Source: Candidatus Angelobacter sp. (GTDB taxonomy: Bacteria; Acidobacteriota; Terriglobia; Acidiferrales; UBA7541). From it: 64,000 bases of DNA. The stretch spans positions 16,080 to 80,079 of the forward strand of contig DATNDO010000043.1 of NCBI GenBank assembly GCA_035606955.1, written 5' to 3'. The position numbers and the translations under genes were made by a program. The stretch's first letter is position 1. Every line of letters starts with the position of its first letter. Below are positions 1-48,659 of the stretch, one piece after another. Below the pieces are notes generated by a model, which was given only the letters and a program-made list of their open reading frames with translations, had not been told where the DNA came from and made no database searches.

Positions 1-324
1 TCCTGCATCGGGCACATATTTTGGGTGCACGGAACCAAATGCGAGCAACCGCTTCGGATCGGCGGAACAGTATTTCGCGATCCAGTCATTCACTTCAGGC
101 GGAAAACCAATCACGTCTGGACTCACGTAATTAATCAAGCCCGCGCGTTCGATTCCAGCTTCATCCAGAAATTGCAGGAACAGCTTTGGATCTGCGGAAT
201 ATTTTTGCACTTCGGGGTAATCTTTGCGGCCTTTTTGAATCAACGCTAGAGCATGCGGCTTGAACATGTGCAAAGGCTGAATGTGAATATGAATGTCGAT
301 TACAGCGCCCGAATCGGATGGCAA
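1..324 (-). CDS. amidohydrolase-family metal-dependent hydrolase/decarboxylase (partial, runs off left edge)
   Basis: Not in the ORF track because no stop lies inside the window. The minus-strand frame reads TTG(324)-PSDSGAVIDIHIHIQPLHMFKPHALALIQKGRKDYPEV...KRLLAFGSVHPKYVPDAG and stays open to base 1. IDIHIH is the HxH metal motif of amidohydrolases. AAGGAGG lies 6 nt upstream of the TTG. Confidence 0.6.
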   Translation of the reverse strand, partial: MPSDSGAVIDIHIHIQPLHMFKPHALALIQKGRKDYPEVQKYSADPKLFLQFLDEAGIERAGLINYVSPDVIGFPPEVNDWIAKYCSADPKRLLAFGSVHPKYVPDAG

Positions 325-363
325 GCCATTCCTCCTTAAAATTTGGACCAACGGCGGCGCGGC

Positions 364-1365
364 CTATGCTTTCCCGTGGCCATTTCTCCAAGTGTCTTCG
401 AGCGCGCGTCGCGTAAACACGCGCACCATGTCACGACGATATACCGGCGTCGAACCGGAAGTCGTCAGCGGCTTGCCCGTCTGAATTGCGGCGTGCGCGA
501 CGCGCTCCGCGAGCTCCAGCGACCATTTCCGGCCAATGAGCGATTCGCTTGCTTGCATCACCAACATCGGAGCCGGATTCACAGCTGAGAGAGCGACGCG
601 CGCATCTTTGCAAATACCGGCAGAGTCGACCTCCATCGCTACGGCTACGCCAGCGAGCGGGTAGTCGATCGAGTCCCGCACGCGCAACTTGTGATACACG
701 CCGCAGCGGCCGGCCATACGCGCAGGCACGTGAACGGCGGTGACCAATTCGTTGCGCGCCAGGGCGATGCGATCCATGCCGTCATTCTTATAGAAATCGC
801 GCAGGGCAACACGCCGCGTTCCCGAACGACCGGCGATTTCCAGTTCTGCGTCGAGTGTCAAAAATGCGGGCGCGGAGTCGCCTGACCACGCGGCCCAGCA
901 AAAGTTTCCGCCAGGCGCGACGTGGCAGATGTCGCCGTCTTTTTTCAAGCAGCCACCAAGCGACTGACGCCAGAAATGCGATTGGTTGTACCAGCGACAG
1001 CGCGTTTCCAGGCACAGGTTGCCGCCGATCGTCCCCATGTTGCGCTGCAGCGGGCCCGCAACTGTGCCAATTGCGCTCGCAAGCACCGGAAATTTCTCGC
1101 GGAGCCATGGTGTATCGAGAATATTGGTCAGCGTGGCTGTCGAGCCAATGCGCAAGCCGTCGCGCGGTGAAAAATCTATCGTCGCCAATTCTCGCAGGAG
1201 TTTCACGTCCACTAACACACGCGGCGTAAAAAGCCGCATCTGCAAGTTGGGAATCACGTCGGTGCCGCCCGCAATCACCATCGCATCGGAGCCGTGTTGA
1301 TCCAGCATGTTGACCGCGTCGGCGACCGTGCGCGGCTGCAGAACGTGAAATGCAGGAAGCGTCAT
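364..1365 (-). CDS. FAD-binding medium subunit of a molybdenum hydroxylase (CoxM/HcrB-like) with an extra Cys cluster
   Basis: 333 aa. It has an AGGTD FAD-binding N-terminus. Its start overlaps the stop of the large subunit (ATGA). Insert with C123-x15-C139-x7-C147-x8-C156. Confidence 0.85.
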   Translation of the reverse strand: MTLPAFHVLQPRTVADAVNMLDQHGSDAMVIAGGTDVIPNLQMRLFTPRVLVDVKLLRELATIDFSPRDGLRIGSTATLTNILDTPWLREKFPVLASAIGTVAGPLQRNMGTIGGNLCLETRCRWYNQSHFWRQSLGGCLKKDGDICHVAPGGNFCWAAWSGDSAPAFLTLDAELEIAGRSGTRRVALRDFYKNDGMDRIALARNELVTAVHVPARMAGRCGVYHKLRVRDSIDYPLAGVAVAMEVDSAGICKDARVALSAVNPAPMLVMQASESLIGRKWSLELAERVAHAAIQTGKPLTTSGSTPVYRRDMVRVFTRRALEDTWRNGHGKA

Positions 1366-3716
1366 CGAGGGCTCCCGGCAAGCGATGCCTTCTTCGGAGC
1401 ATTTGATCCATTGCCACCCGCCGACTTCTGTTTTTCGCGCAATGCGTCCAGGATCTTATCCGGCGTGATAGGAATCGAGTTGATGCGTACGCCGACGGCG
1501 TCGAAAATCGCATTCGCAATCGCTGGTATCGTTGCCGCGAGCGAGCCTTCGCCGGCCTCTTTCGCGCCAAATGGGCCTTCCGGATCGATACTCTCGACTA
1601 TAATCGACTCAATCTCCGGATTCTCTTTCGTTGCGGGAATGCGATATTCGAGCAACGATGGATTCATCAGGCGGCCATCTTTCCAGATCATGTCTTCCTG
1701 CAGCGCCTGTCCAAACCCCATATAAACCGATCCCTCGATCTGCCCTTCGACTGTAAGGGGATTCAGCGCTTTGCCGCAGTCGTGCGCCGCGACAATTTTA
1801 TCGACGTGAACGTGGCCCGTTTCTGGATCGACGGTGACTTCCGCAACTTGCGCGCTGTAGCTGTACGCCGGTGAAGGACCCACGCCAGCGCCCTTGAATT
1901 TTCCGCCGCGCGCCGTTTCGGGAGGCGCGTAAGTGCCGCGAGCCGACAGCGCTCCGTGAAATTCGAGTGCGACGGCAACTGCTTCGTCGAACGAAAAACT
2001 CTTGCTCGCATCGCTCGTGTGCGACATGCGTCCATTTTTCGCTTCGAAATCTTCCGCCGCGCAGCCGAACTTCTTTGCTACCGCCGCGACAATTTGGTCG
2101 CGCATATCTTTCGCCGCATTCAGGCACGCGTTGCCGGCCATGAACGTTACGCGGCTCGAATAACTGCCAAGGTCAATCGGCGTAAGTTCCGTATCGGCCG
2201 CGATCAGCTTGATGCGATCCGCGGTGACGCCAAGAACCTCCGCGGCAATTTGTACCTGCATCGTGTCCGAACCCTGGCCGATCTCGGAAGCGCCCGTGTA
2301 AACGGTGACCGCCGCGTCGCGATCAATTTTGATGTGCACGGTCGTGTGCGGCATGTTCGAGCGAATGATAGGATTCGCCGCGCCGCTGACGTAATGGCTG
2401 CACGCCATACCCACGCCCTTGCCATAGGGCAGCTTGCCTTTCTTCTCCGCCCAACCCGAACGCTCAAAAACTTTCTCGACGCATTCCGGCAAGCCGTAGC
2501 TTGTGACGCGAAGCGAATTCGCCGTAATGCATGGTGCCTTCAGCAAATTTCGCCTGCGAACTTCGAGAGGATCAAGTCCGGCCTGATACGCTAACTGGTC
2601 AAGGATCGACTCGAACGCGAAACGAACGTTAACTGTGCCGTGGCCGCGCATTGCGCCACACGCAGGCTTATTCGTGAGCACGCGAAAACCGTCGTATTGC
2701 ACATTCGCGATATCGTAAATCGCTCCGAGCAGCGCGCCCGAATAGAGCACCGTCACCGGGCCATAGCCGCAGTACGCGCCGCCGTCTTGAATCACACGCG
2801 CTTGCACCGCGGTAATCTTCCCCGCGCGAGTCATCCCCACTTTCAAATAAACGATAGTGATTGGCCGGCCGCGATGCGCCAGGAACACTTCCTCGCGCGT
2901 ATACGTGATCTTCACGGGCTTGCGCGATTTTTTCGCAAGCACGCACGCGGCAACTTCAAGAGGAATAATTTCGCTCTTGCCGCCGAAGCCGCCGCCGATC
3001 AGCGGCTTGATTACTCGAATCTGGCTCATCGGCATTTCGCAAACTGCTGCGATGGTGCGATGGAGGTAGAACGGCACTTGCGTGGAGGAATGAACCGTCA
3101 GGCGCTCATCCGGTTCCCAAACCGCGAGCGTTGCGTGCGGCTCCATGGCAGCCTGATTGACTTCGCCAGCGTAATAACGCTCTTCCGCAACGAAATCCGC
3201 CTCGCCAAAACCTTTCACCGGATCACCGAATACGTGGTGATATTCCTTTTCGATATTTTGCGGCCGCTCTTCATTGATCCAGTTCGAGGCCGCTTTCATG
3301 GATTGTTCGGGATCGAACCACGCAGGCAATTGCTCGTAGTCGACGCGAATCAAATCGAGCGCCTGCTCGGCGATTTCCGGAGTTGCCGCTGCCACAGCAG
3401 CGATGTTGTCGCCGATGTAGAGAGCCTTGCCAAGCGCGAAAGCCCGCTCGTCGTGACCAATCGGCAAAATGCCATAAGGATTGCGCGCGTCTTCGCCAGT
3501 CGCCGTTACTTTGACGCCCGCGAGCGCTTCGGCTTGCGAAGTATCGATCGAACGGATGCGCGCATGTGCATGGGGTGAATGCAGGATTTTCCCGATCAGC
3601 ATTCCAGGAACGGAAAGATCGTCCGCATACTTGCCAAGGCCCGTGACTTTGGCGCGAGCATCCGTCATCGCCATAGGCTTGCCGATGATGCTGAAGCCGT
3701 TGGTATTTTTCGCCAT
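1362..3716 (-). CDS. molybdopterin-binding large subunit of xanthine-oxidase-family hydroxylase (HcrA/CoxL-like)
   Basis: 784 aa. The N-terminus is typical of the aldehyde oxidase/xanthine dehydrogenase a/b-hammerhead (IGKPMAMTDARAKVTGLGKYADDL). GGGFGGK motif. It sits between the 2Fe-2S and FAD subunits. Confidence 0.9.
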   Translation of the reverse strand: MAKNTNGFSIIGKPMAMTDARAKVTGLGKYADDLSVPGMLIGKILHSPHAHARIRSIDTSQAEALAGVKVTATGEDARNPYGILPIGHDERAFALGKALYIGDNIAAVAAATPEIAEQALDLIRVDYEQLPAWFDPEQSMKAASNWINEERPQNIEKEYHHVFGDPVKGFGEADFVAEERYYAGEVNQAAMEPHATLAVWEPDERLTVHSSTQVPFYLHRTIAAVCEMPMSQIRVIKPLIGGGFGGKSEIIPLEVAACVLAKKSRKPVKITYTREEVFLAHRGRPITIVYLKVGMTRAGKITAVQARVIQDGGAYCGYGPVTVLYSGALLGAIYDIANVQYDGFRVLTNKPACGAMRGHGTVNVRFAFESILDQLAYQAGLDPLEVRRRNLLKAPCITANSLRVTSYGLPECVEKVFERSGWAEKKGKLPYGKGVGMACSHYVSGAANPIIRSNMPHTTVHIKIDRDAAVTVYTGASEIGQGSDTMQVQIAAEVLGVTADRIKLIAADTELTPIDLGSYSSRVTFMAGNACLNAAKDMRDQIVAAVAKKFGCAAEDFEAKNGRMSHTSDASKSFSFDEAVAVALEFHGALSARGTYAPPETARGGKFKGAGVGPSPAYSYSAQVAEVTVDPETGHVHVDKIVAAHDCGKALNPLTVEGQIEGSVYMGFGQALQEDMIWKDGRLMNPSLLEYRIPATKENPEIESIIVESIDPEGPFGAKEAGEGSLAATIPAIANAIFDAVGVRINSIPITPDKILDALREKQKSAGGNGSNAPKKASLAGSPR

Positions 3717-3718
3717 GG

Positions 3719-4225
3719 TCAGTGGGTCGCCGGAACATGCGCCGCGGACTTCGTTCGCAGCTTTTCAATCGCGTATTTCACGGACTCGTAGATTTGCATG
3801 TAGCCGGTGCAGCGGCAGAGATTGCCGGAGAGCGCTTCGCGAATCTCGTCCATGGAAGGCTCTGGATTGCGGTCGAGCAGGGCCTTTGTGGCAATCATGA
3901 ACCCTGGCGTGCAATAGCCGCATTGCGCGCCGCCCATTTCCGCATAGCCTTCCTGCACGGGATCAAGTTCACCTGGGCCGCCGAGTCCCTCGACCGTCGT
4001 GATTTCGCGCCCTTCGTAGCTGGCTGCGAGCGCGACGCAGGAAAGCATTGGCGTTCCGTCGATGAGCACCGCGCAGCAGCCGCAACTCGAATCGTCGCAG
4101 CCCCGCTTCGAACCAGTGAGGCCAAGATCTTCACGTAGCGCATCCAGTACGAGCCGATTCGGCGCGATGGCGATTTCGCGCTCTTCGCCATTGACGCGCA
4201 AGCGCATGAGTTCTTTGTTCACCAC
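3719..4225 (-). CDS. [2Fe-2S]-binding small subunit of molybdenum hydroxylase (HcrC/CoxS-like)
   Basis: 168 aa. It carries both 2Fe-2S cysteine motifs (GCDDSSCGCC and CGYCTPG...CRCTGY). GTG start next to AGGAG. Confidence 0.9.
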   Translation of the reverse strand: MVNKELMRLRVNGEEREIAIAPNRLVLDALREDLGLTGSKRGCDDSSCGCCAVLIDGTPMLSCVALAASYEGREITTVEGLGGPGELDPVQEGYAEMGGAQCGYCTPGFMIATKALLDRNPEPSMDEIREALSGNLCRCTGYMQIYESVKYAIEKLRTKSAAHVPATH

Positions 4226-4230
4226 GTCTC

Positions 4231-4581
4231 CTAGGCGAGCTTCTTCAGCGCTTCTTCGTCGTACCCCAGCACGATTTGTTTCCCGGAAATTACCACGGGC
4301 CTGCGAATCAGATTCGGCTCCGCAGCCATCATTTTCAAAGCGTCCGCGCGCGAGGGCGGATTTTCCTTCATATTCCGCTGACGATACAGCTCATTTCGCG
4401 TGTTCAAGAACAATCGGTAATCCCGTTCGCCGATTAGCTTGTCCAGTTCCGCGACCGTCAAACGATCTTGAGCCAGATCCCTTAGTTCCAGTTCAACCCC
4501 GCGTTCGAGCAAGAGACCTCTTGCTTTGCGGCAGGAGGTTCATGTCGGCTTGTGCCAGAATTTAATTTTTGTTTTCGCCAT
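4231..4581 (-). CDS. Spx/ArsC-family redox protein, candidate selenoprotein (TGA 4540-4542 read as Sec, UxxC motif)
   Basis: The ORF track shows only 4231..4512 (93 aa), which lacks the family N-terminus. The same frame upstream reads ATG(4581) MAKTKIKFWHKPT-TGA-TSCRKARGLLERGVELE. The total of 116 codons is typical for this family. The C-terminal LIRRPVVISGKQIVLGYDEE is the family signature. Confidence 0.7.
4499..4542 (-). promoter_or_regulatory. candidate bacterial SECIS hairpin following the in-frame UGA
   Basis: The mRNA reads UGA-ACCUCCUG-CCGC-AAA-GCAAGA-GGUC-UCUUGC-UCGAAC-GCGG. A perfect 6-bp upper stem with a GGUC loop starts 15 nt after the UGA. A possible 4-bp lower helix is CCGC/GCGG. 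Confidence 0.5.
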
Positions 4582-4594
4582 TCTTGTTCGCCTT

Positions 4595-4933
4595 TCAGTA
4601 ACGCGGCACGCGCGGATCGATTTCCTGCGACCATCGGTCAATCCCGCCCGCCATCGAGCGCGCTCCGGAAACTCCTTGGGAACGCAACCACGCCGCGGCA
4701 TCGAGACTACGCCGGCCGCTATGACAGAAAAGTATGACGGTATCCGCTGCTTCGAATTCGGCCAGGCTTGCGGGGATCTGCCCCAGCGGAATCAGTTTTG
4801 AACCTTCGATATGGCAGAGCTGGTATTCCCACGACTCACGCACGTCGACAAAAAACAATTTCTCGCCCCGGTCGAGCTGTTGTTTCACTTCGGTGGGCGC
4901 AATCTCCAGATTCGCGAACAAGTCTTCAGGCAT
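4595..4933 (-). CDS. single-domain rhodanese sulfurtransferase
   Basis: Active-site loop CHSGRRS. ATG at 4933 is preceded by GGTGGAG with a 5-nt spacer; the track's longer ORF starts at TTG 4948. The stop lies 13 nt before the ATG of the Spx/ArsC-like gene. Confidence 0.85.
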   Translation of the reverse strand: MPEDLFANLEIAPTEVKQQLDRGEKLFFVDVRESWEYQLCHIEGSKLIPLGQIPASLAEFEAADTVILFCHSGRRSLDAAAWLRSQGVSGARSMAGGIDRWSQEIDPRVPRY

Positions 4934-4987
4934 TTTTCTCCACCGCAATTCTCCATCGTGCGTCCTGCTCTGACAGCGCGATACCTA

Positions 4988-5791
4988 TCATCTTCCCTGC
5001 CAGACGGGAGTACGTTTTTCAAGGAACGCGCGAATGCCTTCCTGCGCATCCTCGGTATGGATCAGGTCCCGCAAGTAAACTTCCTCGACGGTTTCCAGGC
5101 TCCGCTCAAAATCGAATCCCGCCGTTTTCCACAATGTACGCCGCGCCATTCCCAAAACGGCAGGACTGAGCGCGCCGAGCTCTTCGAGCAAGGCTGCAAC
5201 AGTGTTCTCCAACTCTCCGTCCGCAACCACCCGTGAAATAAGTCCAAGGCGTTGCGCTTCGCGCGCGGAAATCGTTCGGCCGCTCAATATCAGATCCACG
5301 GCCGCGCGCATCCCGACCAGCTTCGGAAACGTGACCATCGCCATGGGCGGAAAGCAGCCGAGCTTGATTTCGGGCTGGCCGAATTTCGCCGATTCTGTTG
5401 CGACGACGAAATCGCAGAACGTCGCCAGTTCGCAGCCGCCTCCCAGGCAGCACCCGTGCACGGCGGCAATAGTGATAAACCGGCTGTTCCATATTTCGCG
5501 GAAGATTCCGTGAAAGGCGTGGAGCATATCCTCGACGCGCTCTGGCGCATGATCTGAGACTTCCGCGCCCGCCGAAAAACCCTTTTCTCCTGCTCCCTGA
5601 AAAACCAGAACATCCATTTCTGGGCCCAGTTCTTCAATCACTGCGTTGATCTCGCGCATCATCGCGATATTCATCACGTTCAAAGGCGGACGCTCGAGCA
5701 CGATCCGCGCAATGCGGCCTTCGGTGCGTACGCGAACGCTTTCCAGGGCTAGCATGTCAATCGTTTTAAAATGCGCGGGACTACTCCCCAC
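4988..5791 (-). CDS. enoyl-CoA hydratase/isomerase (crotonase) family protein
   Basis: 267 aa. Crotonase fold motifs are present (FSAGAEV, GCCLGGGCELA). GTG start with GGAG upstream, 1 nt after the BoxB-like stop. Confidence 0.85.
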   Translation of the reverse strand: MGSSPAHFKTIDMLALESVRVRTEGRIARIVLERPPLNVMNIAMMREINAVIEELGPEMDVLVFQGAGEKGFSAGAEVSDHAPERVEDMLHAFHGIFREIWNSRFITIAAVHGCCLGGGCELATFCDFVVATESAKFGQPEIKLGCFPPMAMVTFPKLVGMRAAVDLILSGRTISAREAQRLGLISRVVADGELENTVAALLEELGALSPAVLGMARRTLWKTAGFDFERSLETVEEVYLRDLIHTEDAQEGIRAFLEKRTPVWQGR

Positions 5792-5792
5792 A

Positions 5793-6911
5793 TTACTCCA
5801 TCGAGCCCTTCGGCGCGATCCACTTCGGCTCCGTGCTCTGAATGTCGCTGATGAGCTTCAAGTCTTCTTCCTGCGGAAATACTTCTTTCATGTGCTCCGC
5901 ATATTTCGCAGGTGACAGCAATTCACCCGAGACGCTGTACGGTTGATTCGCAAATTCGCCGATATGGCGATTGAACTTTGGATCAGGAACGTAAAGCGGA
6001 GTCTTACCTGCAGGGACGTGCTTGTTGATTTGCTCGATCAATTTCAAGCACTCCGCGTAATAAAGATTGCGATTATGCTCGTTCATGTGGCCTAGGTCGG
6101 CGGCTTGCTGATTCTGTGCTTCGTCGTAACGTCCCTTGAGGCCCCAAACATAAAACCAGTGCGCCGAACTCGACTGATCGACGCCGAAAAGATCGTTGCT
6201 CACGGGAATCCATTTGTTGACGTATTTCTGCACTACAGTTAGAGGAACCACGCCGGCCTTCACGATGCGCTTGATCCCATCGTGGCCCGTGCCCAGGTGA
6301 AAAGATTCCTCGCGCAACATGGGAATCATCGACTGCGCCAGCGGCGCGAAGCCTGAGTAGCTCAGCATCGTGAGCTGGAATTTTCCGTCGCGGTCCACGA
6401 AATCAGTGTATGTGAAGAAGTCGAGCCAGTTACGCACGTCCTGGTTAAACGCGCCCAGCAGGCGCTTCTGCTCGAACGCGCGCCGCTCCAGCATTTTTTG
6501 CGCTTCCACGCGCCCGCCATAGCCGAAATGCGAAATCAGCAGCGTGCACATTTGCCAGCCGTGGCGCATTTCTTCGGTCACCACGCGGCAGAGTGATTTG
6601 CGGTCGTGCTCGCTCGGGCATGCCTCAAAAAGATGGCGCTGTTGCTCAACCGATGCGAACTCCGTGTCTCCCTGATAAATGATCAGATTCATCAGGCCGT
6701 CGCGTATCCGCTGGTCTGGAATTTCGAGGACTTTCTGCCACTTTGAACGGCCCTTGAACGCGCCGAATTCGATTTCGTTCGAGCGGATCGGGCCGAATTT
6801 CGCTTCGAATTTATAATTCTCAATTTCGGCATAGTTCACGCCAATTTCTTTGCGCCAGGAGCCGAATAAATCCACCCAGTCGTCAAAAGTTGCGATTCGT
6901 GTTGCAGGCAT
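5793..6911 (-). CDS. BoxB-like diiron acyl-CoA oxygenase (benzoyl-CoA 2,3-epoxidase B-subunit family)
   Basis: 372 aa. The stretch QGDTEFASVEQQRHL...EEMRH...DRDGKFQL...REESFHLG resembles BoxB as I remember it. Two ExxH diiron motifs. Strong GGAGGAG upstream of the ATG. Confidence 0.7.
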   Translation of the reverse strand: MPATRIATFDDWVDLFGSWRKEIGVNYAEIENYKFEAKFGPIRSNEIEFGAFKGRSKWQKVLEIPDQRIRDGLMNLIIYQGDTEFASVEQQRHLFEACPSEHDRKSLCRVVTEEMRHGWQMCTLLISHFGYGGRVEAQKMLERRAFEQKRLLGAFNQDVRNWLDFFTYTDFVDRDGKFQLTMLSYSGFAPLAQSMIPMLREESFHLGTGHDGIKRIVKAGVVPLTVVQKYVNKWIPVSNDLFGVDQSSSAHWFYVWGLKGRYDEAQNQQAADLGHMNEHNRNLYYAECLKLIEQINKHVPAGKTPLYVPDPKFNRHIGEFANQPYSVSGELLSPAKYAEHMKEVFPQEEDLKLISDIQSTEPKWIAPKGSME

Positions 6912-6974
6912 TGCTCCATCTCCTCCCGGGATCGTCCGGTCACCAGAGCTTATTTAAGATAAAAACTTGTTCCT

Positions 6975-7790
6975 TCAGCTCCCGCGAAACTGCGGCTCGC
7001 GCTTCGCGAAGAACGCATCGAGTCCTTCTGCACAGTCAGCCGAAAGGAAGCATTCCACTTGCTGCTCGATTTCCGCGTCGAGCGCGCGCTCCAACTCCTC
7101 GCGTTCAGCACCAATTAAAACCTGCTTGATCGCGCGAATCGCCATCGGAGGGCCGGCAGCCAATTGCGCGGCAAACTTTTTTGCTTCCTCCGCGAACTTT
7201 TCCTCCGGCACAACCCGATTCACGATTCCCAGCCGCTCCGCCTCAGCCGCGGAAATCATTTCCGCCGTGTAAAACAACTCCGCAGCCTTGGCCACGCCGA
7301 CAATCCTCGGCAGAAAATACGTCCCGCCGAAATCCGGGAACAGGCCCACTCGCGTGAAAGTCTCGCCAAAGGTCGCTTGATCGGACGCGATGCGAAGATC
7401 GCACGCCAGAGCCAGATTCATCCCAGCGCCTGCCGCTGGGCCATTCACCGCGGCGATCACCGGTTTCGGCATGGTGCAAATGGCCATTGCGATCTCTTTC
7501 CCCGCGCGCAATAGGCCTTCGAGTTCATGGCCGGCATTGCGCGAACGCGCGTCGCGAAGCACGGCCAGATCTCCTCCGGCGCAGAAACCGCGACCCGCGC
7601 CTGTCAAAATAATCACTCGTGTCGACCTGTCGGCAGCCGCGCGATTAAGTCCATCAACAAGCGCGCGACCCAACTCGACATTCAGCGCATTCAAACGCTC
7701 GGGACGGTTCAGGCGCAGACTCAACACGGCACCGTCGCGCTCCTCGAGAACCAGCGCTTCCGCCACCGATTTGTGCGTTGCACTCGACAT
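6975..7790 (-). CDS. enoyl-CoA hydratase/isomerase family protein
   Basis: Crotonase motifs (FCAGGDL, NGPAAGAGMNLALACD). I place the start at internal ATG 7790 (MSSATHKS...) because the longer track ORF would overlap the upstream mug gene by about 150 nt. Confidence 0.85.
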   Translation of the reverse strand: MSSATHKSVAEALVLEERDGAVLSLRLNRPERLNALNVELGRALVDGLNRAAADRSTRVIILTGAGRGFCAGGDLAVLRDARSRNAGHELEGLLRAGKEIAMAICTMPKPVIAAVNGPAAGAGMNLALACDLRIASDQATFGETFTRVGLFPDFGGTYFLPRIVGVAKAAELFYTAEMISAAEAERLGIVNRVVPEEKFAEEAKKFAAQLAAGPPMAIRAIKQVLIGAEREELERALDAEIEQQVECFLSADCAEGLDAFFAKREPQFRGS

Positions 7791-7801
7791 TACAGGCTGC
7801 C

Positions 7802-8311
7802 TCAAGTGCCCATCCGTTTCAGAACCGCGGCCAGCTTCCTGAAATAGCGCATCTTCACGCCTCGGCCCTTCGCATTCAGCGCGCTGGTGGAAGGCAGCAC
7901 GAAAACATCCGCGCCGTAGAGCTTTTCTTTCTGCAATCCAAGCATGCAAGGGCGGCCGGCAAATTTCTCGTAAACCATCTTGCCGTTGAACGCGACCAGA
8001 CGCGGGCGGAACTCTTCGAGCTTTTGCGCGAGTAGCACGCGGCCTTCCGAAAATTCCTCGCGTTCGATGTCGTCGATTCCCTTCGACGGCCGCTTGACCA
8101 GATCGGTAAGTCCTATGCCAAATTCCAGCACGCGGCGATCATCGGCATAGGCAATCGGCTCGGGAATCACGCCCGATTCATAGAGCAACGGCCAAAATTC
8201 GTTGCCGCGCCCCGCGTAATAGTGGCCCACGCGCGCTGAGCGTTCGCCGGGATTACATCCCACGACAATGAGCTTCATTCCTCGCCGGAGATAATCAGGC
8301 AGCGTGCGCAT
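7802..8311 (-). CDS. mug: G/U mismatch-specific uracil-DNA glycosylase (family 2 UDG)
   Basis: 169 aa. The GCNPG motif corresponds to GINPG of E. coli Mug. NEFW and LPSTSALN motifs also match. Family length is correct. Confidence 0.8.
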   Translation of the reverse strand: MRTLPDYLRRGMKLIVVGCNPGERSARVGHYYAGRGNEFWPLLYESGVIPEPIAYADDRRVLEFGIGLTDLVKRPSKGIDDIEREEFSEGRVLLAQKLEEFRPRLVAFNGKMVYEKFAGRPCMLGLQKEKLYGADVFVLPSTSALNAKGRGVKMRYFRKLAAVLKRMGT

Positions 8312-8338
8312 CGCTTCGAGCCAACTCCATCGTCACAT

Positions 8339-9811
8339 TTAATCTTTCAGATTCACCCAAACGCTCTTCACTTGCGTGTAGCTCTCGAGCGCGTGCATGC
8401 TCAATTCGCGCCCGTAACCGCTCATCTTGTAGCCGCCAAAGGCCGCGGCGGGATCGTAATTGTTGTACGTGTTGATCCACACGGTTCCAGCTTGCAGCCG
8501 GTGCGCGACGCGGTGCGCCTTGGCAATATCGCGCGTCCAAACGGCAGCTGCAAGGCCGTACGGGTTCTTATTTGCTTCGCGGATAGCTTCTTCCACGTCG
8601 TCGAACGCGATCGTCGCAAGCACAGGACCGAAGATTTCCTCGCGCGCAATGGTCATATCGTTCTTCACGTCATCGAACACGGTCGGCTGAACGAAATAGC
8701 CTTTGCCGTTGCCGAATTGCGCACGCGCTCCCCCGGCGACGAGTTTCGCTCCTTCGGTTTTTCCCTTCTCAATATAGCCGAGCACTTTATTCATCTGCGA
8801 TTCACTAACCAGTGCGCCGAATTTCGTTTTAGGATCGAGCGGGTCACCGGGTTGGACTTTCTTTGTGCGGTCAACCAGTTTCTGCATAAAATCATCGTGA
8901 ATCTTGCGCTCCACGAAGAGCCGCGAGCCTGCCGCACATACTTCGCCTTTGCCGTAGAAGATGCCGATTGTCGCGCCGCGCACTGCGCCGTCCAAATCAG
9001 CGTCGGCCAGAACAATATTCGGAGATTTTCCTCCAAGCTCGAGAGTGACGTGCTTCAGGCTGTCCGCGGAAACACGAGCAATCTCCTGCCCGGTCATAGT
9101 CGAGCCGGTGAATGCAATTTTCGACACGCCCGGGTGGCGCACCAGCGCGCGGCCGAGTTCGTCCGAAGCGCCTGTGACGATGTTCAAAGCGCCGTCCGGC
9201 AAGCCGGCTTCCTGGCAAATCTCGCCGAGCCGCAGCGCTGTGAGCGACGTCCACGGCGCGGGCTTCAGCACGACAGTATTGCCGGCAGCCAGCGCGGGCG
9301 CCACTTTCCACGACGCAAGGAGCAGGGGAAAATTCCACGGGACGATTGCCGCAACCACACCGATAGGTTCACGCAGCGTGTAATGCAGAAACGGTCCGCG
9401 AACAGGAACCGTTTCACCGTGAATCTTTGTGGCCCAGCCAGCGTAGTAGCGGAAAACTTCCGCCACCATCGGCATGTCCACCTGGCACGATTCAAAGATG
9501 GGCTTGCCATTGTCGAGCGTTTCGAGGGTCCCGAGTTCTTCGTTGTATTTGTCGACAAGATCGCCGATTTTCCAGAGTATGCGGCCGCGGTCCGAAGCGC
9601 TCATCTCCGCCCACGAGCCTGACTCGAACGCGCCCCGCGCCGCCTCGACTGCGAGATCAGCATCGGGGGCGTCTGCGTCGGCAATCTGCGTCAGTGTTTC
9701 GCCCGTGGCAGGGTTAATCGTCGAATACGTCTTGCCCGACGCGGCATTTTGCCATTTGCCGCCAATGAATAACTTCCCGGGCTTCGCCTCAATTTTGGCC
9801 GCGGTCGCCAT
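8339..9811 (-). CDS. NAD(P)-dependent aldehyde dehydrogenase
   Basis: 490 aa. ELGGKSP and GEVCAAGSR catalytic motifs. Confidence 0.9.
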   Translation of the reverse strand: MATAAKIEAKPGKLFIGGKWQNAASGKTYSTINPATGETLTQIADADAPDADLAVEAARGAFESGSWAEMSASDRGRILWKIGDLVDKYNEELGTLETLDNGKPIFESCQVDMPMVAEVFRYYAGWATKIHGETVPVRGPFLHYTLREPIGVVAAIVPWNFPLLLASWKVAPALAAGNTVVLKPAPWTSLTALRLGEICQEAGLPDGALNIVTGASDELGRALVRHPGVSKIAFTGSTMTGQEIARVSADSLKHVTLELGGKSPNIVLADADLDGAVRGATIGIFYGKGEVCAAGSRLFVERKIHDDFMQKLVDRTKKVQPGDPLDPKTKFGALVSESQMNKVLGYIEKGKTEGAKLVAGGARAQFGNGKGYFVQPTVFDDVKNDMTIAREEIFGPVLATIAFDDVEEAIREANKNPYGLAAAVWTRDIAKAHRVAHRLQAGTVWINTYNNYDPAAAFGGYKMSGYGRELSMHALESYTQVKSVWVNLKD

Positions 9812-9817
9812 GCTCTG

Positions 9818-10627
9818 CTACCTTCCTTTGAATTCCGGTTGGCGCTTCTCCACGTACGCTTTCAGCCCTTCCTTCGCATCATCGCTTGTGAAGAGCAATT
9901 GCTGCAATTCGCGCTCGATACCAAGAGCCTCGCCAAAGCCAACTTCCAATCCGGTCACCACGGCGCGCTTGATACGGCCCACGGCACGCGATGCCTTGTT
10001 CGGAGGGCAGAATTGCCGCGCGTAGGCCATTACTTCTTCCCAGAACGATTCCCGCTCGTAAATATACTGAATCAGCCCCATCTCGGCGGCTTCTTCGAAG
10101 CTGAATGTGCGCCCCGTCGCCATTAATTCAATCGCTCGCGACTTGCCCACCGCGCGCGCAAGACGTTGCGTGCCTCCCGTGCCGGGAAGAACGCCCAGGT
10201 TCACTTCGGGCAGGCCAATTTTGCCGCCTTCCTTTTTCGCCAGTCGGATATCGCAAGCCAGCGCAATTTCAAGACCGCCTCCCACCGTGTGCCCGTTCAG
10301 CGCCGCAATCACGAGTTTGGGAGTCTGCTCCAAGCGGGAAAGCGTTTCGTTGGCATGCAGGCAGAAATAATATTTGAACTGCGGGTCGACTTTGGCGAGC
10401 ATGGGGATGCTCGCTCCCGCCGAAAAGAACTTTTCACCCGCGCCACGAAGCAAAAGGACATGGACGCTGTCGTCCATGCGCGCCTGCAAAATTGATTCAT
10501 CGAGCTGGCGCATCATCTCGTACGTGTACGTGTTCGCCGGCGCATCATCCATTTCGATTATGGCGATGCCGTCTTCCACGCGATAATTCACCAACTGTTT
10601 CTGATCCACTGCTTGCGTCGTAGCCAT
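9818..10627 (-). CDS. enoyl-CoA hydratase/isomerase family protein
   Basis: 269 aa. Crotonase motifs (FSAGASI, NGHTVGGGLEIALACD). Confidence 0.85.
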   Translation of the reverse strand: MATTQAVDQKQLVNYRVEDGIAIIEMDDAPANTYTYEMMRQLDESILQARMDDSVHVLLLRGAGEKFFSAGASIPMLAKVDPQFKYYFCLHANETLSRLEQTPKLVIAALNGHTVGGGLEIALACDIRLAKKEGGKIGLPEVNLGVLPGTGGTQRLARAVGKSRAIELMATGRTFSFEEAAEMGLIQYIYERESFWEEVMAYARQFCPPNKASRAVGRIKRAVVTGLEVGFGEALGIERELQQLLFTSDDAKEGLKAYVEKRQPEFKGR

Positions 10628-20038: not shown

Positions 20039-20410
20039 CTAAATCGCATCGCCCAGCCGAATCCCCGCCAGCATCACAACCAACCCGAGCAGTACGCTCG
20101 CCGCCACGTACGCCGTTCCCTTCATCCATTCTCCGTCCTCTAACATCCGAATTGTTTCCCAACTGAATGTCGAGAACGTCGTGAACGCCCCAAAAAGTCC
20201 CACCGTCAAACCGATGCGCCAATCCGGCGAAATCGAAACATGATTTAGCGCAAATTTCCCAACCAGCCCCAGCAGAAAACACCCCACCAGATTCACGCTG
20301 AGCGTTCCATACGGGAAGCTCGAGCCTGATCTGTGCTGTACCAAACCCTCGAGACCGTACCGCGCCAGCGTTCCCGCAACACCAAATACGGCGAGTAGCA
20401 ATATACGCAC
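20039..20410 (-). CDS. crcB: fluoride ion channel CrcB/Fluc
   Basis: 123 aa with four TM segments. GAFTTFSTF signature. GTG start. A fluoride riboswitch lies upstream. Confidence 0.9.
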   Translation of the reverse strand: MRILLLAVFGVAGTLARYGLEGLVQHRSGSSFPYGTLSVNLVGCFLLGLVGKFALNHVSISPDWRIGLTVGLFGAFTTFSTFSWETIRMLEDGEWMKGTAYVAASVLLGLVVMLAGIRLGDAI

Positions 20411-25838: not shown

Positions 25839-25963
25839 ACCGCCCTCTCACTCAGTAGATGCGCCGGCCGAACGTAAAACGTAACTCGTACGCCCCTCCC
25901 GGAGACAATACTCCCTGATCCCTCTCAAACGGGGCCTTATAATGGACAAGTTAGGAGAATTCA

Positions 25964-27043
25964 TTGCCTGGGGAAAAGATTCTCGTCTGTGACGATGAAG
26001 AAGCGATTCGAGAGGTCGTTTCCACCCTCCTCGAAGCCCAGGGGTACCGCTGCACGGTTGTGCCCGACGGTTTTCAGGCCATGCAGGAAATCAAGAATGA
26101 CTCGCACGATCTCGTCCTCAGCGACATCGTAATGCCAGAAATGGACGGTATGCGACTGTTGCGACAGGTCCGCTCACAAGATGAGGACATTCCAGTCATC
26201 ATGGTCACCGCGATGCACGACATCTCTATCGCGCTGGAAGCAATTCGCGCCGGAGCTTACGATTACATTCTGAAACCCTTCGAGAAGGATCAGCTTTATC
26301 ACAGCGTTTCGCGGGCTCTGGAGCATAGGCATCTTGTCCTCGAGAACCGTTCCTACCAGCAAAACCTCGAGCACCTCGTCGCCGAACGCACCCAGCAGCT
26401 TTCGCTAACCCTGCGGGACCTTGAGCAATCGTATGACTACACCCTCGAAGCGCTTGGCGGGGCGCTTGACGCGAAAGACGCCGAAACAGAAGGGCACTGC
26501 CAGCGCGTGACCGCGATCACGATCCTCATCGCGAAAATCATGAAAGTCGAACGCGACCAGTTGCGACACATCGCCCGCGGCGCTTTCCTCCACGACATCG
26601 GAAAAATGGGAATCCCCGACCAGGTTCTGCGAAAGCCTGGCCCGCTCACGGATGAAGAACGTCTGCTCATGCGGCGCCACTGCGATATCGGCTACACCGT
26701 CCTGAACAAGATTCCCTTTCTAAAAGACGCAGCCGAAATTGTCCTCGCGCACCAGGAATGCTACAACGGGAGCGGTTACCCGCGTGGTTTGAAAGGCGAA
26801 GAAATTCCCCTTGGAGCCAGAATATTTGCCGTGGCTGACACGCTCGATGCCATGTGTTCCGACCGGCCATACCGCAAGGCTTTGCCGATTTCGGCGGCTC
26901 GCGACGAAATCAAAAAGTTCTCCGGAACGCAATTCGATCCCCGCGTTGTGTCCGCGTTTCTTTCCAAACCGGACGAATTCTGGACCGAACTTCGCAAGAA
27001 CATCGGCGACCCATTCAGATATCTGACAATGGATGAAAGCTAG
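25964..27043 (+). CDS. response-regulator receiver domain fused to HD-GYP phosphodiesterase domain
   Basis: TTG start with TAGGAG upstream. Receiver motifs DDEE...D...MPEMDG...K. HD-GYP motifs HDIGK and GSGYPRGL. Confidence 0.9.
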   Translation: MPGEKILVCDDEEAIREVVSTLLEAQGYRCTVVPDGFQAMQEIKNDSHDLVLSDIVMPEMDGMRLLRQVRSQDEDIPVIMVTAMHDISIALEAIRAGAYDYILKPFEKDQLYHSVSRALEHRHLVLENRSYQQNLEHLVAERTQQLSLTLRDLEQSYDYTLEALGGALDAKDAETEGHCQRVTAITILIAKIMKVERDQLRHIARGAFLHDIGKMGIPDQVLRKPGPLTDEERLLMRRHCDIGYTVLNKIPFLKDAAEIVLAHQECYNGSGYPRGLKGEEIPLGARIFAVADTLDAMCSDRPYRKALPISAARDEIKKFSGTQFDPRVVSAFLSKPDEFWTELRKNIGDPFRYLTMDES

Positions 27044-27183: not shown

Positions 27184-27765
27184 ATGAAGCGAATCGTTAC
27201 GATGGCGGTCGCATTGCTACTGGCGCTTTCTGTTTTGTCGTTCGCAGCGCAAGCGCAGGACCAGCAGGCGGCAATCACCACGACGAACCTGAAGGTCGGC
27301 GACGTTGCTCCGAATTTCTCTCTGCCCAGCGATCAACATGGTTCGGTATCACTGGACAGTTTTCGGGGCAAAAAGAACGTCATCCTCGCCTTCTACGTTC
27401 TCGCTTTCACCGGTGGTTGAACGAAGGAACTCCAGGCCTATCAGTCTGATTTGGCCAAGATCGAAGCAAGCGATTCGGTAATTTTCGGCGTCAGTATCGA
27501 TAGCCCTCCAGCTAACGCCGCATTCGCAAAGCAAATCGGTGTCACCTTTCCTTTGCTGAGCGATATGAACCGCACCGTCCTGAAGCAATACGGAATCGTG
27601 CAACCTTTCCCCTTGGGAACAGATAAAGTGGAATTTGCGCGACGCACCACGTTCGTGATTGACAAAGACGGCGTGATTAAGCACATCGATTTCGACACAA
27701 CGGCCATCGACCCGACGTCCGCCGTGACAATTTGTACGGGCCTTCACGAAAAACACGGAACGTAG
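27184..27765 (+). CDS. exported peroxiredoxin (AhpC/TSA-Bcp type), candidate selenoprotein (TGA 27418-27420 read as Sec)
   Basis: Track ORFs 27166..27420 and 27451..27765 are in the same frame, with only this TGA between them. The joined sequence reads VILAFYVLAFTGG-U-TKELQAYQ, so the TGA sits on the peroxidatic Cys of the FTxxCTxE motif. RRTTFVIDKDGVI lies downstream. AAGGAGAG precedes ATG 27184. Signal peptide present. Confidence 0.75.
27418..27456 (+). promoter_or_regulatory. candidate SECIS hairpin after the peroxiredoxin UGA
   Basis: GGCC-U-AUC-AGUCU-GAU-UU-GGCC at 27435-27456 starts 14 nt after the UGA. The apical loop contains GU. The stem is imperfect. Confidence 0.4.
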
Positions 27766-28286: not shown

Positions 28287-28610
28287 TCACGGGTGCAAAC
28301 GTACAATCCGCAAGCTATCCGGAAACACAAAAATCAAAATCATGACCAGACAGAAAACCAGCGAAGGAACGATAATCAAGAAGAGGCCGAGCTTCTCAAA
28401 TCGCAGATGCATGAAATACGCCACAATCAAAGCAGATTTGATCAACGACAAACCCACCAGAAGAACCAGCATGGGGTGCGGGTCAAGTTTCAAATAGGCA
28501 AGAAGGACCTCGACGCCGGTGAGAACTAGGAGCCAAAACCACACCCACATAAATAGCTTTTTCGTCGGCGCGTGGTGTGCTTCGATTGCGGATGTTCCAT
28601 GCGTGCTCAT
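28287..28610 (-). CDS. cytochrome c oxidase subunit IV (prokaryotic small subunit)
   Basis: 107 aa with three TM segments. It follows the subunit III genes. Confidence 0.7.
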   Translation of the reverse strand: MSTHGTSAIEAHHAPTKKLFMWVWFWLLVLTGVEVLLAYLKLDPHPMLVLLVGLSLIKSALIVAYFMHLRFEKLGLFLIIVPSLVFCLVMILIFVFPDSLRIVRLHP

Positions 28611-28625
28611 CGCTCGATATGCTCC

Positions 28626-29261
28626 TCAGCCCTTCAAGTTAACCGACATCAGATAGACCATTGGAAAAATGAACATCCACACCAAGTCGACAAAGTGCCA
28701 GTAAAGGCCGCTGACCTCGACGTGATCGGCATTAAATTTTCTGCGGCCGAAGCCCAACGCGATAATACACAAATAAATCACGCCAATCGAGACGTGCAGC
28801 ATGTGCAAGCCCGTCAAACCGAAGAACGTGCCGCCGAAAAGCGGGTCACCCCACTTATTCGACCACGGAGTCACGCCTTCCGCGAAAAGCCGGAACCACT
28901 CCATCATGTGTAGACCGACGAAAGCGACTCCTCCGACAGCGGTCAAGAGAATGTAAATTACAGCTTTCTTGATCTCGTTGCGATGCGCGGCGGCCACAGC
29001 CATAACCATCGTCAAGCTGCTTGACAAAAGAATAAACGTCAAAAACGTTGCGTTCGCGATTGCAGGATAAATCTCAAAGGGGCGCGGCCAGTTTGCGCTC
29101 GACAGGCGCACGTACGCGTACGCAAGAATCGCAGTCGAAAATGTGAGCGAGTCGGAAAGAAGGAACAGCCACATTCCGAGTTTCTTTGTATTTGTCGCAA
29201 AGGGAGCGACACCGCCACCCCAAGCCTGTCCCGCAACAGCGTCGACGTCCATTTCAGCCAA
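28626..29261 (-). CDS. ctaE: cytochrome c oxidase subunit III
   Basis: 211 aa. LHMLHVSIGVIYL and YWHFVDLVWMFIFPMVYL signatures. Confidence 0.85.
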   Translation of the reverse strand: MAEMDVDAVAGQAWGGGVAPFATNTKKLGMWLFLLSDSLTFSTAILAYAYVRLSSANWPRPFEIYPAIANATFLTFILLSSSLTMVMAVAAAHRNEIKKAVIYILLTAVGGVAFVGLHMMEWFRLFAEGVTPWSNKWGDPLFGGTFFGLTGLHMLHVSIGVIYLCIIALGFGRRKFNADHVEVSGLYWHFVDLVWMFIFPMVYLMSVNLKG

Positions 29262-29264
29262 GTA

Positions 29265-29912
29265 TCACCGTCCTAGCAAGAGAAGTAGGAAGAGAAAAAC
29301 CCACAGTCCATCCATGAAGTGCCAATACACCGACGTGATTTCCGTCGCCGTCGCAAATGTCAACCGGCGCAATTTTCCGCGTCCCACGTACAGCAACGCG
29401 ACAATGCCTCCAAGCAAGTGGAGCCCGTGAGCCGCTGTGAGCACATAGAAAAAACTGCCGCTCGCGTTTGTCGCCAGATAAAAGCCGGATATAACCATTT
29501 GTCGCCAAGCGATCACCTGCCCCGCGAGAAACAGGAAACCGAGAATCGTGGTAACCATCCACCAGTGCCGGAAACCTTCGCGGTCGCCTCGCGTGAAGAA
29601 GTGCCGAGCGCGCACAATCGTTAGGCTGCTGGCCAGCAGAATCAGCGTGTTCAACCACAGAATCCGCGGCATCGGAAATGCCTGCCAATCACTCCCGACA
29701 CCCTTCCGCACAATAAACGCACTGGCGAACGCCATAAAAAACATCAGTATGGCGGCCATCCCAATTGCTATTCCCGTTACATAAACGCGCTGCGGTATTC
29801 CAGAACGCCCGCTGGGCGAGCCGTCGTCGCCTCCCCCTGCAAAGGAAGGCGGCTTGCCTCCTCCGCCTGCTTCGATAATCTCGAGTTCTTCCGTTGTTGA
29901 CGTATGCGGCAT
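29265..29912 (-). CDS. second cytochrome c oxidase subunit III-family protein
   Basis: 215 aa. AAHGLHLLGG and YWHFMDGLWVFLF signatures. It has an N-terminal Gly-rich extension. Confidence 0.75.
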   Translation of the reverse strand: MPHTSTTEELEIIEAGGGGKPPSFAGGGDDGSPSGRSGIPQRVYVTGIAIGMAAILMFFMAFASAFIVRKGVGSDWQAFPMPRILWLNTLILLASSLTIVRARHFFTRGDREGFRHWWMVTTILGFLFLAGQVIAWRQMVISGFYLATNASGSFFYVLTAAHGLHLLGGIVALLYVGRGKLRRLTFATATEITSVYWHFMDGLWVFLFLLLLLGR

Positions 29913-48331: not shown

Positions 48332-48659
48332 CAGGCTGGGGCAACGAGAGCGCGTAAAAACGCATCCAGTTGGCCTGGAGTCGTGGTCTACTAGGCCGGT
48401 ATGGATCGCGCATGCTCATTTACCGGGCATGCTTGAAATGCGCGACATAAGATGCGCGTTGACACGATGGAGCCATTTTGCTATTCAACCTGTTTGCTTT
48501 GTGCTCGGGCACCTCTTGAGCCTGCCGCACGCCGCGATTGACCTCACCTGGTCAATCTGGCCTCCCGCGAACGAGTATGCTGCTGAATCAACGGAGGATT
48601 GCTGTCTTGGTCTCGGATAAGATTAGGAAGCCGTTGCGTAAATTGAGTCAAAGGACAGA

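Follow-up and report, generated by a model that had tools for sequence, protein, structure and literature searches.

Selenoproteins of the ArsC/Spx type, in which selenocysteine (Sec, U) takes the place of a redox-active cysteine, have been known in bacteria for some time. ArsC-like selenoproteins were reported in Deltaproteobacteria in a survey that also listed the Acidobacteria with the Sec-decoding trait and three selenoprotein families (Zhang et al. 2006, PMC1794560). The selenoproteome of the Global Ocean Sampling (GOS) metagenomes subsequently included 'ArsC 1', with the motif UxxS, and 'Arsenate reductase 2' (cd03032), with the motif UxxC, 42 Sec sequences (Zhang and Gladyshev 2008, PMC2398784), and the reviews of 2022 and 2026 list TIGR00014 for the UxxS form and NF041106 (ArsC_rel_Se_1), an 'arsenate reductase-like protein, UxxC' (PMC9312934, PMC13188914). 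The UxxC ArsC/Spx-like selenoprotein class is therefore one that has been in print since 2008. Here we describe a gene of this type on the minus strand, at positions 4231-4581 of a 64,000-nucleotide stretch of acidobacterial DNA (the window), which corresponds to positions 16080-80079 of the 85-kb contig k141_1046297 (European Nucleotide Archive ERZ27256653). With a probability of roughly 0.9 we regard it as a true UxxC selenoprotein gene whose Sec insertion sequence (SECIS) is functional, the predicted product being a 116-residue member of the thioredoxin-fold ArsC/Spx family. An earlier note, made from the letters of the window, had proposed a hidden UxxC selenoprotein at this place and had stated, correctly as the GOS survey shows (PMC2398784), that ArsC-like Sec proteins are known from metagenomes; its overall reading is now supported by the pairing of the TGA codon with Cys, by the conservation of that codon and by the constraint acting on a hairpin downstream of it.

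The reading frame opens with an ATG at 4581-4579 and passes through MAKTKIKFWHKPT, the 13 N-terminal codons (4543-4581, minus strand) that gene callers have overlooked and that would encode strand beta-1 and the loop preceding the redox motif. It then meets an in-frame TGA at 4542-4540, the fourteenth codon, which conservation and the alignment with Cys proteins mark as the predicted Sec codon, and continues as TSCRKARGLLLERG / TSCRKARGLLLERGVELE... to a TAG stop at 4233-4231, giving 116 sense codons and the motif U14-T-S-C17. The ATG lies 13 nucleotides (nt) beyond the TGA stop (4597-4595) of a rhodanese open reading frame (ORF). Translation verified the coordinates that the earlier note had assigned to the hidden gene, namely the ATG at 4581, the in-frame TGA at 4540-4542 and the length of 116 codons, and the claim that this is the normal size of the family holds as well, since homologs of 115-117 residues align end to end. 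The peptide that the note had quoted was in the right frame and wrong by one leucine (ARGLLLERG, not ARGLLERG).

Of this gene the ORF list for the window holds just a 93-residue ORF starting at TTG 4512. That codon sits within the 3' arm of the hairpin 4525-4508. A Shine-Dalgarno-like GAGG, 4 nt upstream of the TTG, also belongs to the hairpin, and the joint position of the two explains why gene callers settle on this start; the 93-residue ORF is a gene-caller artefact. The note's prediction that standard gene callers would truncate the locus is borne out by the best 120 database relatives (clusters), on which all homolog counts given here are based: 39 of them are 91-99% identical and have been deposited as proteins of 93-98 residues beginning at the same TTG. 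Public gene calls on assemblies of the clade, NCBI-deposited genomes included, are 93-residue fragments, and the misdeposited form that lacks the active site accounts for at least 39 protein clusters and for 13 of the 15 species-representative Acidobacteriota genomes.

For the family searches U was replaced by C in the 116-residue product. Membership of the ArsC/Spx superfamily is clear from Pfam (ArsC PF03960, 65 bits, the cutoff being 24). The best NCBIfam match is TIGR01617 (Spx/MgsR), which at 69 bits falls just under its cutoff of 75.05, and the scores also lie below the cutoff for Spx NF002459 (62.8 against 123 bits), for ArsC TIGR00014 (53 against 106 bits) and for NF041106, the 'ArsC family (seleno)protein' model (33.9 against 85 bits). 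Among solved structures, Bacillus subtilis Spx entries come nearest in sequence (E about 3e-13). The TGA aligns exactly with Cys10 of the Spx motif C10-T-S-C13, and also with Cys12 of Escherichia coli ArsC, while 78 of the 120 top relatives are full length (115-133 residues, about 70-77% identical) and carry CT[ST]CR with the first Cys in the TGA column. Both the Spx alignment and these full-length homologs thus agree with the earlier note, which had placed the TGA on the first Cys of the Spx CxxC; the alignment to Cys-containing homologs that it had proposed as a check puts the TGA on the Cys column. The structural evidence comes from an AlphaFold model of a 73%-identical Cys homolog, P0021 (predicted local distance difference test score 94.3), and not from the window protein itself. 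In this model beta-1 comprises residues 4-8 and the CxxC lies at the N-terminus of the helix formed by residues 13-24, and the structures that it matches best in fold are those of Spx, YffB and ArsC, with template modelling (TM) scores of 0.77-0.85. Beta-1, the active site and almost the whole of helix alpha-1 would therefore be missing from a 93-residue product, in line with the note's statement that the product starting at TTG 4512 is without the redox N-terminus of the family.

A scan of one genome per species yielded 15 loci, almost all from Acidobacteriota (Candidatus Acidiferrales, Terriglobia and Bryobacterales). An in-frame TGA is present at exactly this codon in 13 of them, this contig's own copy (L001) included, down to 59% protein identity; in the remaining two, L017 and L019, TGC or TGT stands in its place. 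Across the Sec-form sequences the TGA is invariant (14/14) though the third positions flanking it vary. The 13 codons upstream are conserved as protein (KIKFWHKPT, KIQFLHKPT, KLRYLEKPT and similar) with synonymous variation in Thr (ACA/ACG/ACT), Pro (CCG/CCA/CCC) and Phe (TTC/TTT), and neither a frameshift nor an extra stop occurs in them in any of the Sec-form genomes compared. To judge from this pattern of substitution, the upstream codons evolve like coding sequence. Scattered stops or frameshifts in close relatives had been named beforehand as the pattern that would speak against the gene; when looked for, the opposite was found, a conserved TGA behind a synonymously varying peptide. On a rough neighbour-joining tree of these short sequences the Sec and the Cys forms are intermingled.

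The same cluster, the Sec-TGA gene included, is also present in L010 (DATLTU010000076.1), a contig labelled Candidatus Limnocylindrales and assigned to a metagenome-assembled genome of Chloroflexota. Its proteins share 82-95% amino-acid identity with those of the window, most of them 91-95%; mis-binning of an Acidobacteriota contig is a more probable cause than horizontal transfer.

The hairpin that follows the UGA is a predicted bacterial SECIS (bSECIS) element. The sequence GCAAGA-GGUC-UCUUGC at 4524-4509 begins 15 nt after the UGA, and a flanking A-U pair extends its stem to 7 base pairs (bp; A-GCAAGA / UCUUGC-U, 4525-4508, minus strand). The apical loop GGUC (4518-4515) lies 21 nt after the UGA, and the minimum free energy (MFE) is -8.1 kcal/mol. 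The published criteria for bSECIS elements comprise an apical loop of 3-9 nt with a G within its first two positions, an upper stem 4-16 bp in length, a distance of 16-37 nt from UGA to loop and an MFE of -7.5 kcal/mol or lower (PMC13188914), and the window hairpin is within the limits on every count, as expected from the earlier note, which had described the geometry as that of a bacterial SECIS. The 6-bp stem at +15 nt that the note had drawn is thus retained, now as a conserved stem of 7 bp; the additional lower helix CCGC/GCGG can be drawn in the window and is not conserved, with 71% of cells paired over 14 sequences and two of the four pairs mostly broken, and we have discarded it. An equally good hairpin at SECIS spacing follows 12 of the 1836 UGA triplets in the window (0.65%). 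Folding of the 81-nt region gives no greater stability than folding of shuffled sequences (z = -0.17), so that thermodynamics alone proves nothing and the argument rests on conservation.

That conservation is pronounced. Codons +4 to +10 (CGC AAA GCA AGA GGT CTC TTG) are essentially frozen at their synonymous sites in the 14 Sec-form sequences: Arg is AGA and Leu is TTG in all 14, and GGT and CTC are kept in 12 of 14, whereas Gly, Leu and Arg positions elsewhere that are conserved to the same degree use three to five different codons. The 7-bp stem is 100% paired in the 14 sequences, the changes that it has undergone being a compensatory replacement of A-U by U-A in L011 and L014 and a G.U pair in L018. 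The MFE ranges from -8.1 to -9.4 kcal/mol across all Sec forms; the Cys forms are without a comparable hairpin and give different structures of -4.9 and -2.3 kcal/mol. One caveat concerns the loop, since two Sec forms, L015 and L020, with the loops AGUU and AAUU, are outside the G rule.

Translation would accordingly be expected to begin at ATG 4581, and the hairpin 4525-4508 with its GGUC loop would recruit SelB carrying Sec-tRNA(Sec) to the UGA at 4542-4540. Sequence, structure and conservation together suggest that Sec is inserted at this UGA instead of termination taking place. In the resulting protein Sec14 would act as the attacking nucleophile and Cys17 as the resolving residue, with formation of a selenylsulfide. 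We infer selenol/thiol-disulfide exchange from the placement of Sec at the N-terminal position of the CxxC, at the start of helix alpha-1, and the most likely activity, by analogy, is that of a selenol/thiol-disulfide oxidoreductase. Several observations weigh against this account. The covariation in the hairpin is thin, amounting to one compensatory pair in two sequences that possibly share ancestry, and it is limited because the hairpin is nearly invariant. The covariance-model search that the earlier note had recommended around 4490-4545 went against it: no Rfam SECIS family matched, either in the whole window at the gathering threshold or in 4440-4600 at E <= 10, where the single Rfam match was a chance sRNA (E = 2.4). 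Neither selA, selB or selD (tblastn with E. coli queries) nor tRNA-Sec (ARAGORN) was found in the window, in the related loci or in the contig from 10,310 to 85,372, an absence that is uninformative rather than negative, as these ~75 kb cover part of the genome. The oxidoreductase function, moreover, is based on analogy. A search of the literature on selenium use in Acidiferrales or Acidoferrum returned nothing. Indirectly, decoding of Sec by this organism is favoured by the use of TGA as an ordinary stop in the window, by a second gene on the contig that pairs a TGA with Cys and has a hairpin, and by the Sec trait listed for Acidobacteria (PMC1794560). What doubt is left attaches to the Sec machinery and to a theoretical suppression of UGA to Cys (PMC5389517).

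In its fullest form this last idea holds that a suppressor tRNA, either a selC*-type tRNA-Cys acting via SelB or an acidobacterial allo-tRNA, reads the UGA as Cys or another standard amino acid, so that the protein is made at full length without selenium. There is some precedent for it, in that tRNA-Cys species resembling tRNA-Sec possibly decode UGA and the allo-tRNAs of Acidobacteria are possibly nonsense suppressors (Mukai et al., PMC5389517), and it would sit easily with the lack of a tRNA-Sec or sel gene in the part of the contig and the loci searched. The selC* tRNAs, however, were reported from anaerobic Firmicutes, Thermodesulfobacteria, Nitrospirae and Proteobacteria and not from Acidobacteria (PMC5389517), and a general suppressor would have no need of a strictly conserved hairpin at SECIS spacing. 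TGA is also the ordinary stop of 15 of the 40 long ORFs in the window, which shows that the genetic code is not reassigned genome-wide, and both TGA sites in the window, the present one and that of a peroxiredoxin gene described below, coincide with the positions of catalytic redox Cys residues, the signature that is classic for selenoproteins; suppression is in our view very improbable. Even harder to credit is the notion that the true product consists of the 93 residues from TTG 4512, or that the locus is a decaying pseudogene, the segment from ATG to TGA being untranslated in either case. The 93-98-residue gene calls in 39 of the 120 top homolog clusters and the GAGG 4 nt upstream of the TTG are what such a start would predict, but the 13 codons upstream are conserved with synonymous change over 13 genomes, free of frameshifts and extra stops, the TGA stays fixed while the third positions around it vary, the Cys-form homologs are full length and have no TTG at that codon, and the protein would be left without beta-1, active site and helix alpha-1.

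A different question is whether the full-length selenoprotein has a more specialised role, as (a) an Spx-like RNA-polymerase-binding regulator with a selenylsulfide switch or (b) an arsenate reductase, which we consider unlikely, if worth weighing. TIGR01617 (Spx/MgsR) is the top NCBIfam model, Spx proteins are the best solved relatives by both sequence and fold and share an identical CTSCRKAR motif, and the NCBI name given to the Cys homologs is 'Spx/MgsR family RNA polymerase-binding regulatory protein'; the arsenate reductase has on its side the Pfam ArsC match and the equivalents of ArsC Cys12 and Arg94. Yet the scores for TIGR01617, NF002459 and TIGR00014 are all under the curated cutoffs. 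In Spx, Gly52 is required for binding to the C-terminal domain of the RNA polymerase alpha subunit, and the C-terminal tail serves control by ClpXP and YjbH; in the window protein the Gly52 loop is two residues shorter and contains no Gly, and the ~15-residue Spx tail is absent, the protein ending at residue 116. The catalytic residues of ArsC are Cys12 together with Arg60, Arg94 and Arg107, of which Arg107 aligns to a Tyr here; the motif is UTSC and not CGTS, and there are no ars genes nearby. Sec is, besides, usually found at catalytic positions rather than in regulatory switches. The protein is probably not a canonical Spx, and probably not a canonical arsenate reductase. More doubtful again is a function as an Spx-type redox-sensing regulator, or as a dedicated selenol relay that would cooperate with the adjacent rhodanese in handling sulfane sulfur or selenium, to the benefit of the molybdenum hydroxylase next to it. 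A regulator would be compatible with a redox motif identical to the one in Spx and with Spx being the nearest structures; conservation, however, does not extend to the loop at the RNA polymerase interface or to the C-terminal tail, and the synteny with the rhodanese and the molybdenum enzyme is partial. An Spx-type selenylsulfide switch, if true, would to our knowledge be the first Sec-containing transcription regulator. The reading that we prefer is thus a UxxC selenoprotein of the ArsC/Spx family that most likely acts as a selenol/thiol-disulfide oxidoreductase.

A codon-usage scan for places where coding sequence flanks a TGA on either side identified a second candidate selenoprotein gene in the window, on the plus strand at 27184-27765, for a secreted BCP/PrxQ-type peroxiredoxin with a signal peptide. 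Its TGA (27418-27420), in the context AFTGG-TGA-TKELQ, stands at the column of the peroxidatic Cys, and a hairpin with a GUC loop (27435-27456) begins 14 nt after the UGA. Both TGA and hairpin are kept in homologs of 66% and 51% identity, with a changed stem sequence in the latter, and more distant homologs have Cys (EGCTKQ). The public annotation divides the gene into two fragments of 78 and 66 residues. The closer homologs show W at the Sec column in the entries from the Joint Genome Institute (JGI) and G in one entry of another source; P0131 is likewise among the entries with W or G at this column. In both Trp entries that were checked at the DNA level (P0121 and P0136; JGI metagenome contigs L023, 1-630, and L024, 357-962) the codon is TGA. 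The translation of short contigs that carry a selenoprotein gene seems to have followed genetic code 4, perhaps 25, so that Sec codons are hidden as W or G in protein databases. Three further candidates with an in-frame TGA, all on the minus strand (25961-26374, 28287-29912 and 48623-48928), were rejected; they are coding-like across the TGA and have no redox motif. The pair at 28287-29912, which overlaps genes for cytochrome oxidase subunits, probably represents neighbouring genes in the same frame.

The gene upstream of the ArsC/Spx-like selenoprotein encodes a single-domain rhodanese (4595-4933, minus strand; Pfam Rhodanese 64 bits, active-site loop CHSGRRS, public call of 112 residues), and the two are probably co-transcribed; the rhodanese gene provides context and lies outside the recoding element. 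A rhodanese is found in this position in 10 of the 13 Sec-form loci, L001 included, and is absent from L011, L014 and L018. On the other side lies a three-subunit molybdenum (Mo) enzyme of the xanthine dehydrogenase family (364-4225, minus strand), made up of a 2Fe-2S subunit (3719-4225), a Mo subunit (1362-3716) and an FAD subunit (364-1365). The FAD subunit contains a Cys-rich insertion, CLETRCRWYNQSHFWRQSLGGCLKKDGDICHVAPGGNFCW, which we take to resemble the extra Fe-S loop of 4-hydroxybenzoyl-CoA reductase. The selenoprotein gene is situated, in most of the Sec-form genomes, between the rhodanese and the Mo enzyme, in a cluster for the catabolism of coenzyme A (CoA) thioesters, which in the window includes three enoyl-CoA hydratases, an aldehyde dehydrogenase and a PaaA/BoxB-like di-iron protein. 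The Mo enzyme is absent from three Sec-form loci, and the arrangement of rhodanese and Mo enzyme also surrounds one Cys form. An assignment to a pathway from this neighbourhood (HcrCAB-like Mo enzyme, rhodanese) was considered and is not justified, since these are frequent and not universal neighbours. In a distant Cys-form genome (L032, 5300-9498) the neighbours of the gene are a UDG-family gene and, separated by one other gene, a Macro-domain gene, and in the lineage of the window (window 1-10627; compare L031, 562-12348) the aromatic/CoA genes and the rhodanese appear to have been inserted into this UDG/Macro backbone. An extracytoplasmic function (ECF) sigma/anti-sigma pair and a peptidase M1 are encoded further out in L032. 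Elsewhere in the window a crcB fluoride-channel gene (about 20039-20410) and a DUF190 gene have a fluoride riboswitch (RF01734, 20468-20529, minus strand; Rfam 55 bits, E = 1.4e-12) directly upstream of them, an ordinary arrangement.

How, then, does the locus relate to the systems described before? The SECIS of E. coli fdhF likewise forms a hairpin immediately 3' of the UGA and within the coding sequence, and its apical loop, GGUC, is the same as that of the window hairpin. In fdhF the loop comes 18 nt after the UGA, whereas in the window it comes 21 nt after it; a bulged U cannot be discerned, and the two stems have unrelated sequences. With B. subtilis Spx (PDB 1Z3E, 3GFK, 6GHO, 7F75) the window protein has in common the redox motif xCTSCRKAR, in which the UGA falls on Cys10, and the motifs RRP and GY[DN]E, and the model of the Cys homolog matches Spx with a TM of about 0.8. 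It differs from Spx in overall sequence (~26% identity), in the shortened Gly52 loop and the missing tail, and in coming from a Gram-negative phylum; an RNA-polymerase-binding function for it is not supported. The GOS 'Arsenate reductase 2' group, whose cd03032 is the ArsC_Spx model, agrees in its ArsC/Spx-type thioredoxin fold, in Sec as the first residue of UxxC and in the existence of Cys homologs, and was itself found by Sec/Cys pairing. Those sequences are marine, whereas ours belong to a clade of soil Acidobacteriota. NF041106 represents the same superfamily, UxxC motif and kind of recoding, and by score the window protein nevertheless stands outside this curated family, with the consequence that the NCBI annotation pipeline would not rescue the gene; as the model does not cover the clade, a new or broadened one would be useful. 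Our understanding of Sec decoding or of the ArsC/Spx family is left unchanged by these findings. Their value lies in putting right a systematic annotation error in the ArsC/Spx-like gene of Acidobacteriota and in indicating that soil members of the phylum (Acidiferrales and other Terriglobia) use Sec in thioredoxin-fold redox proteins. Given a protein outside NF041106, a conventional mode of recoding and a class that is already known, the ArsC/Spx-like gene would stand for an Acidobacteriota clade of a known selenoprotein type.

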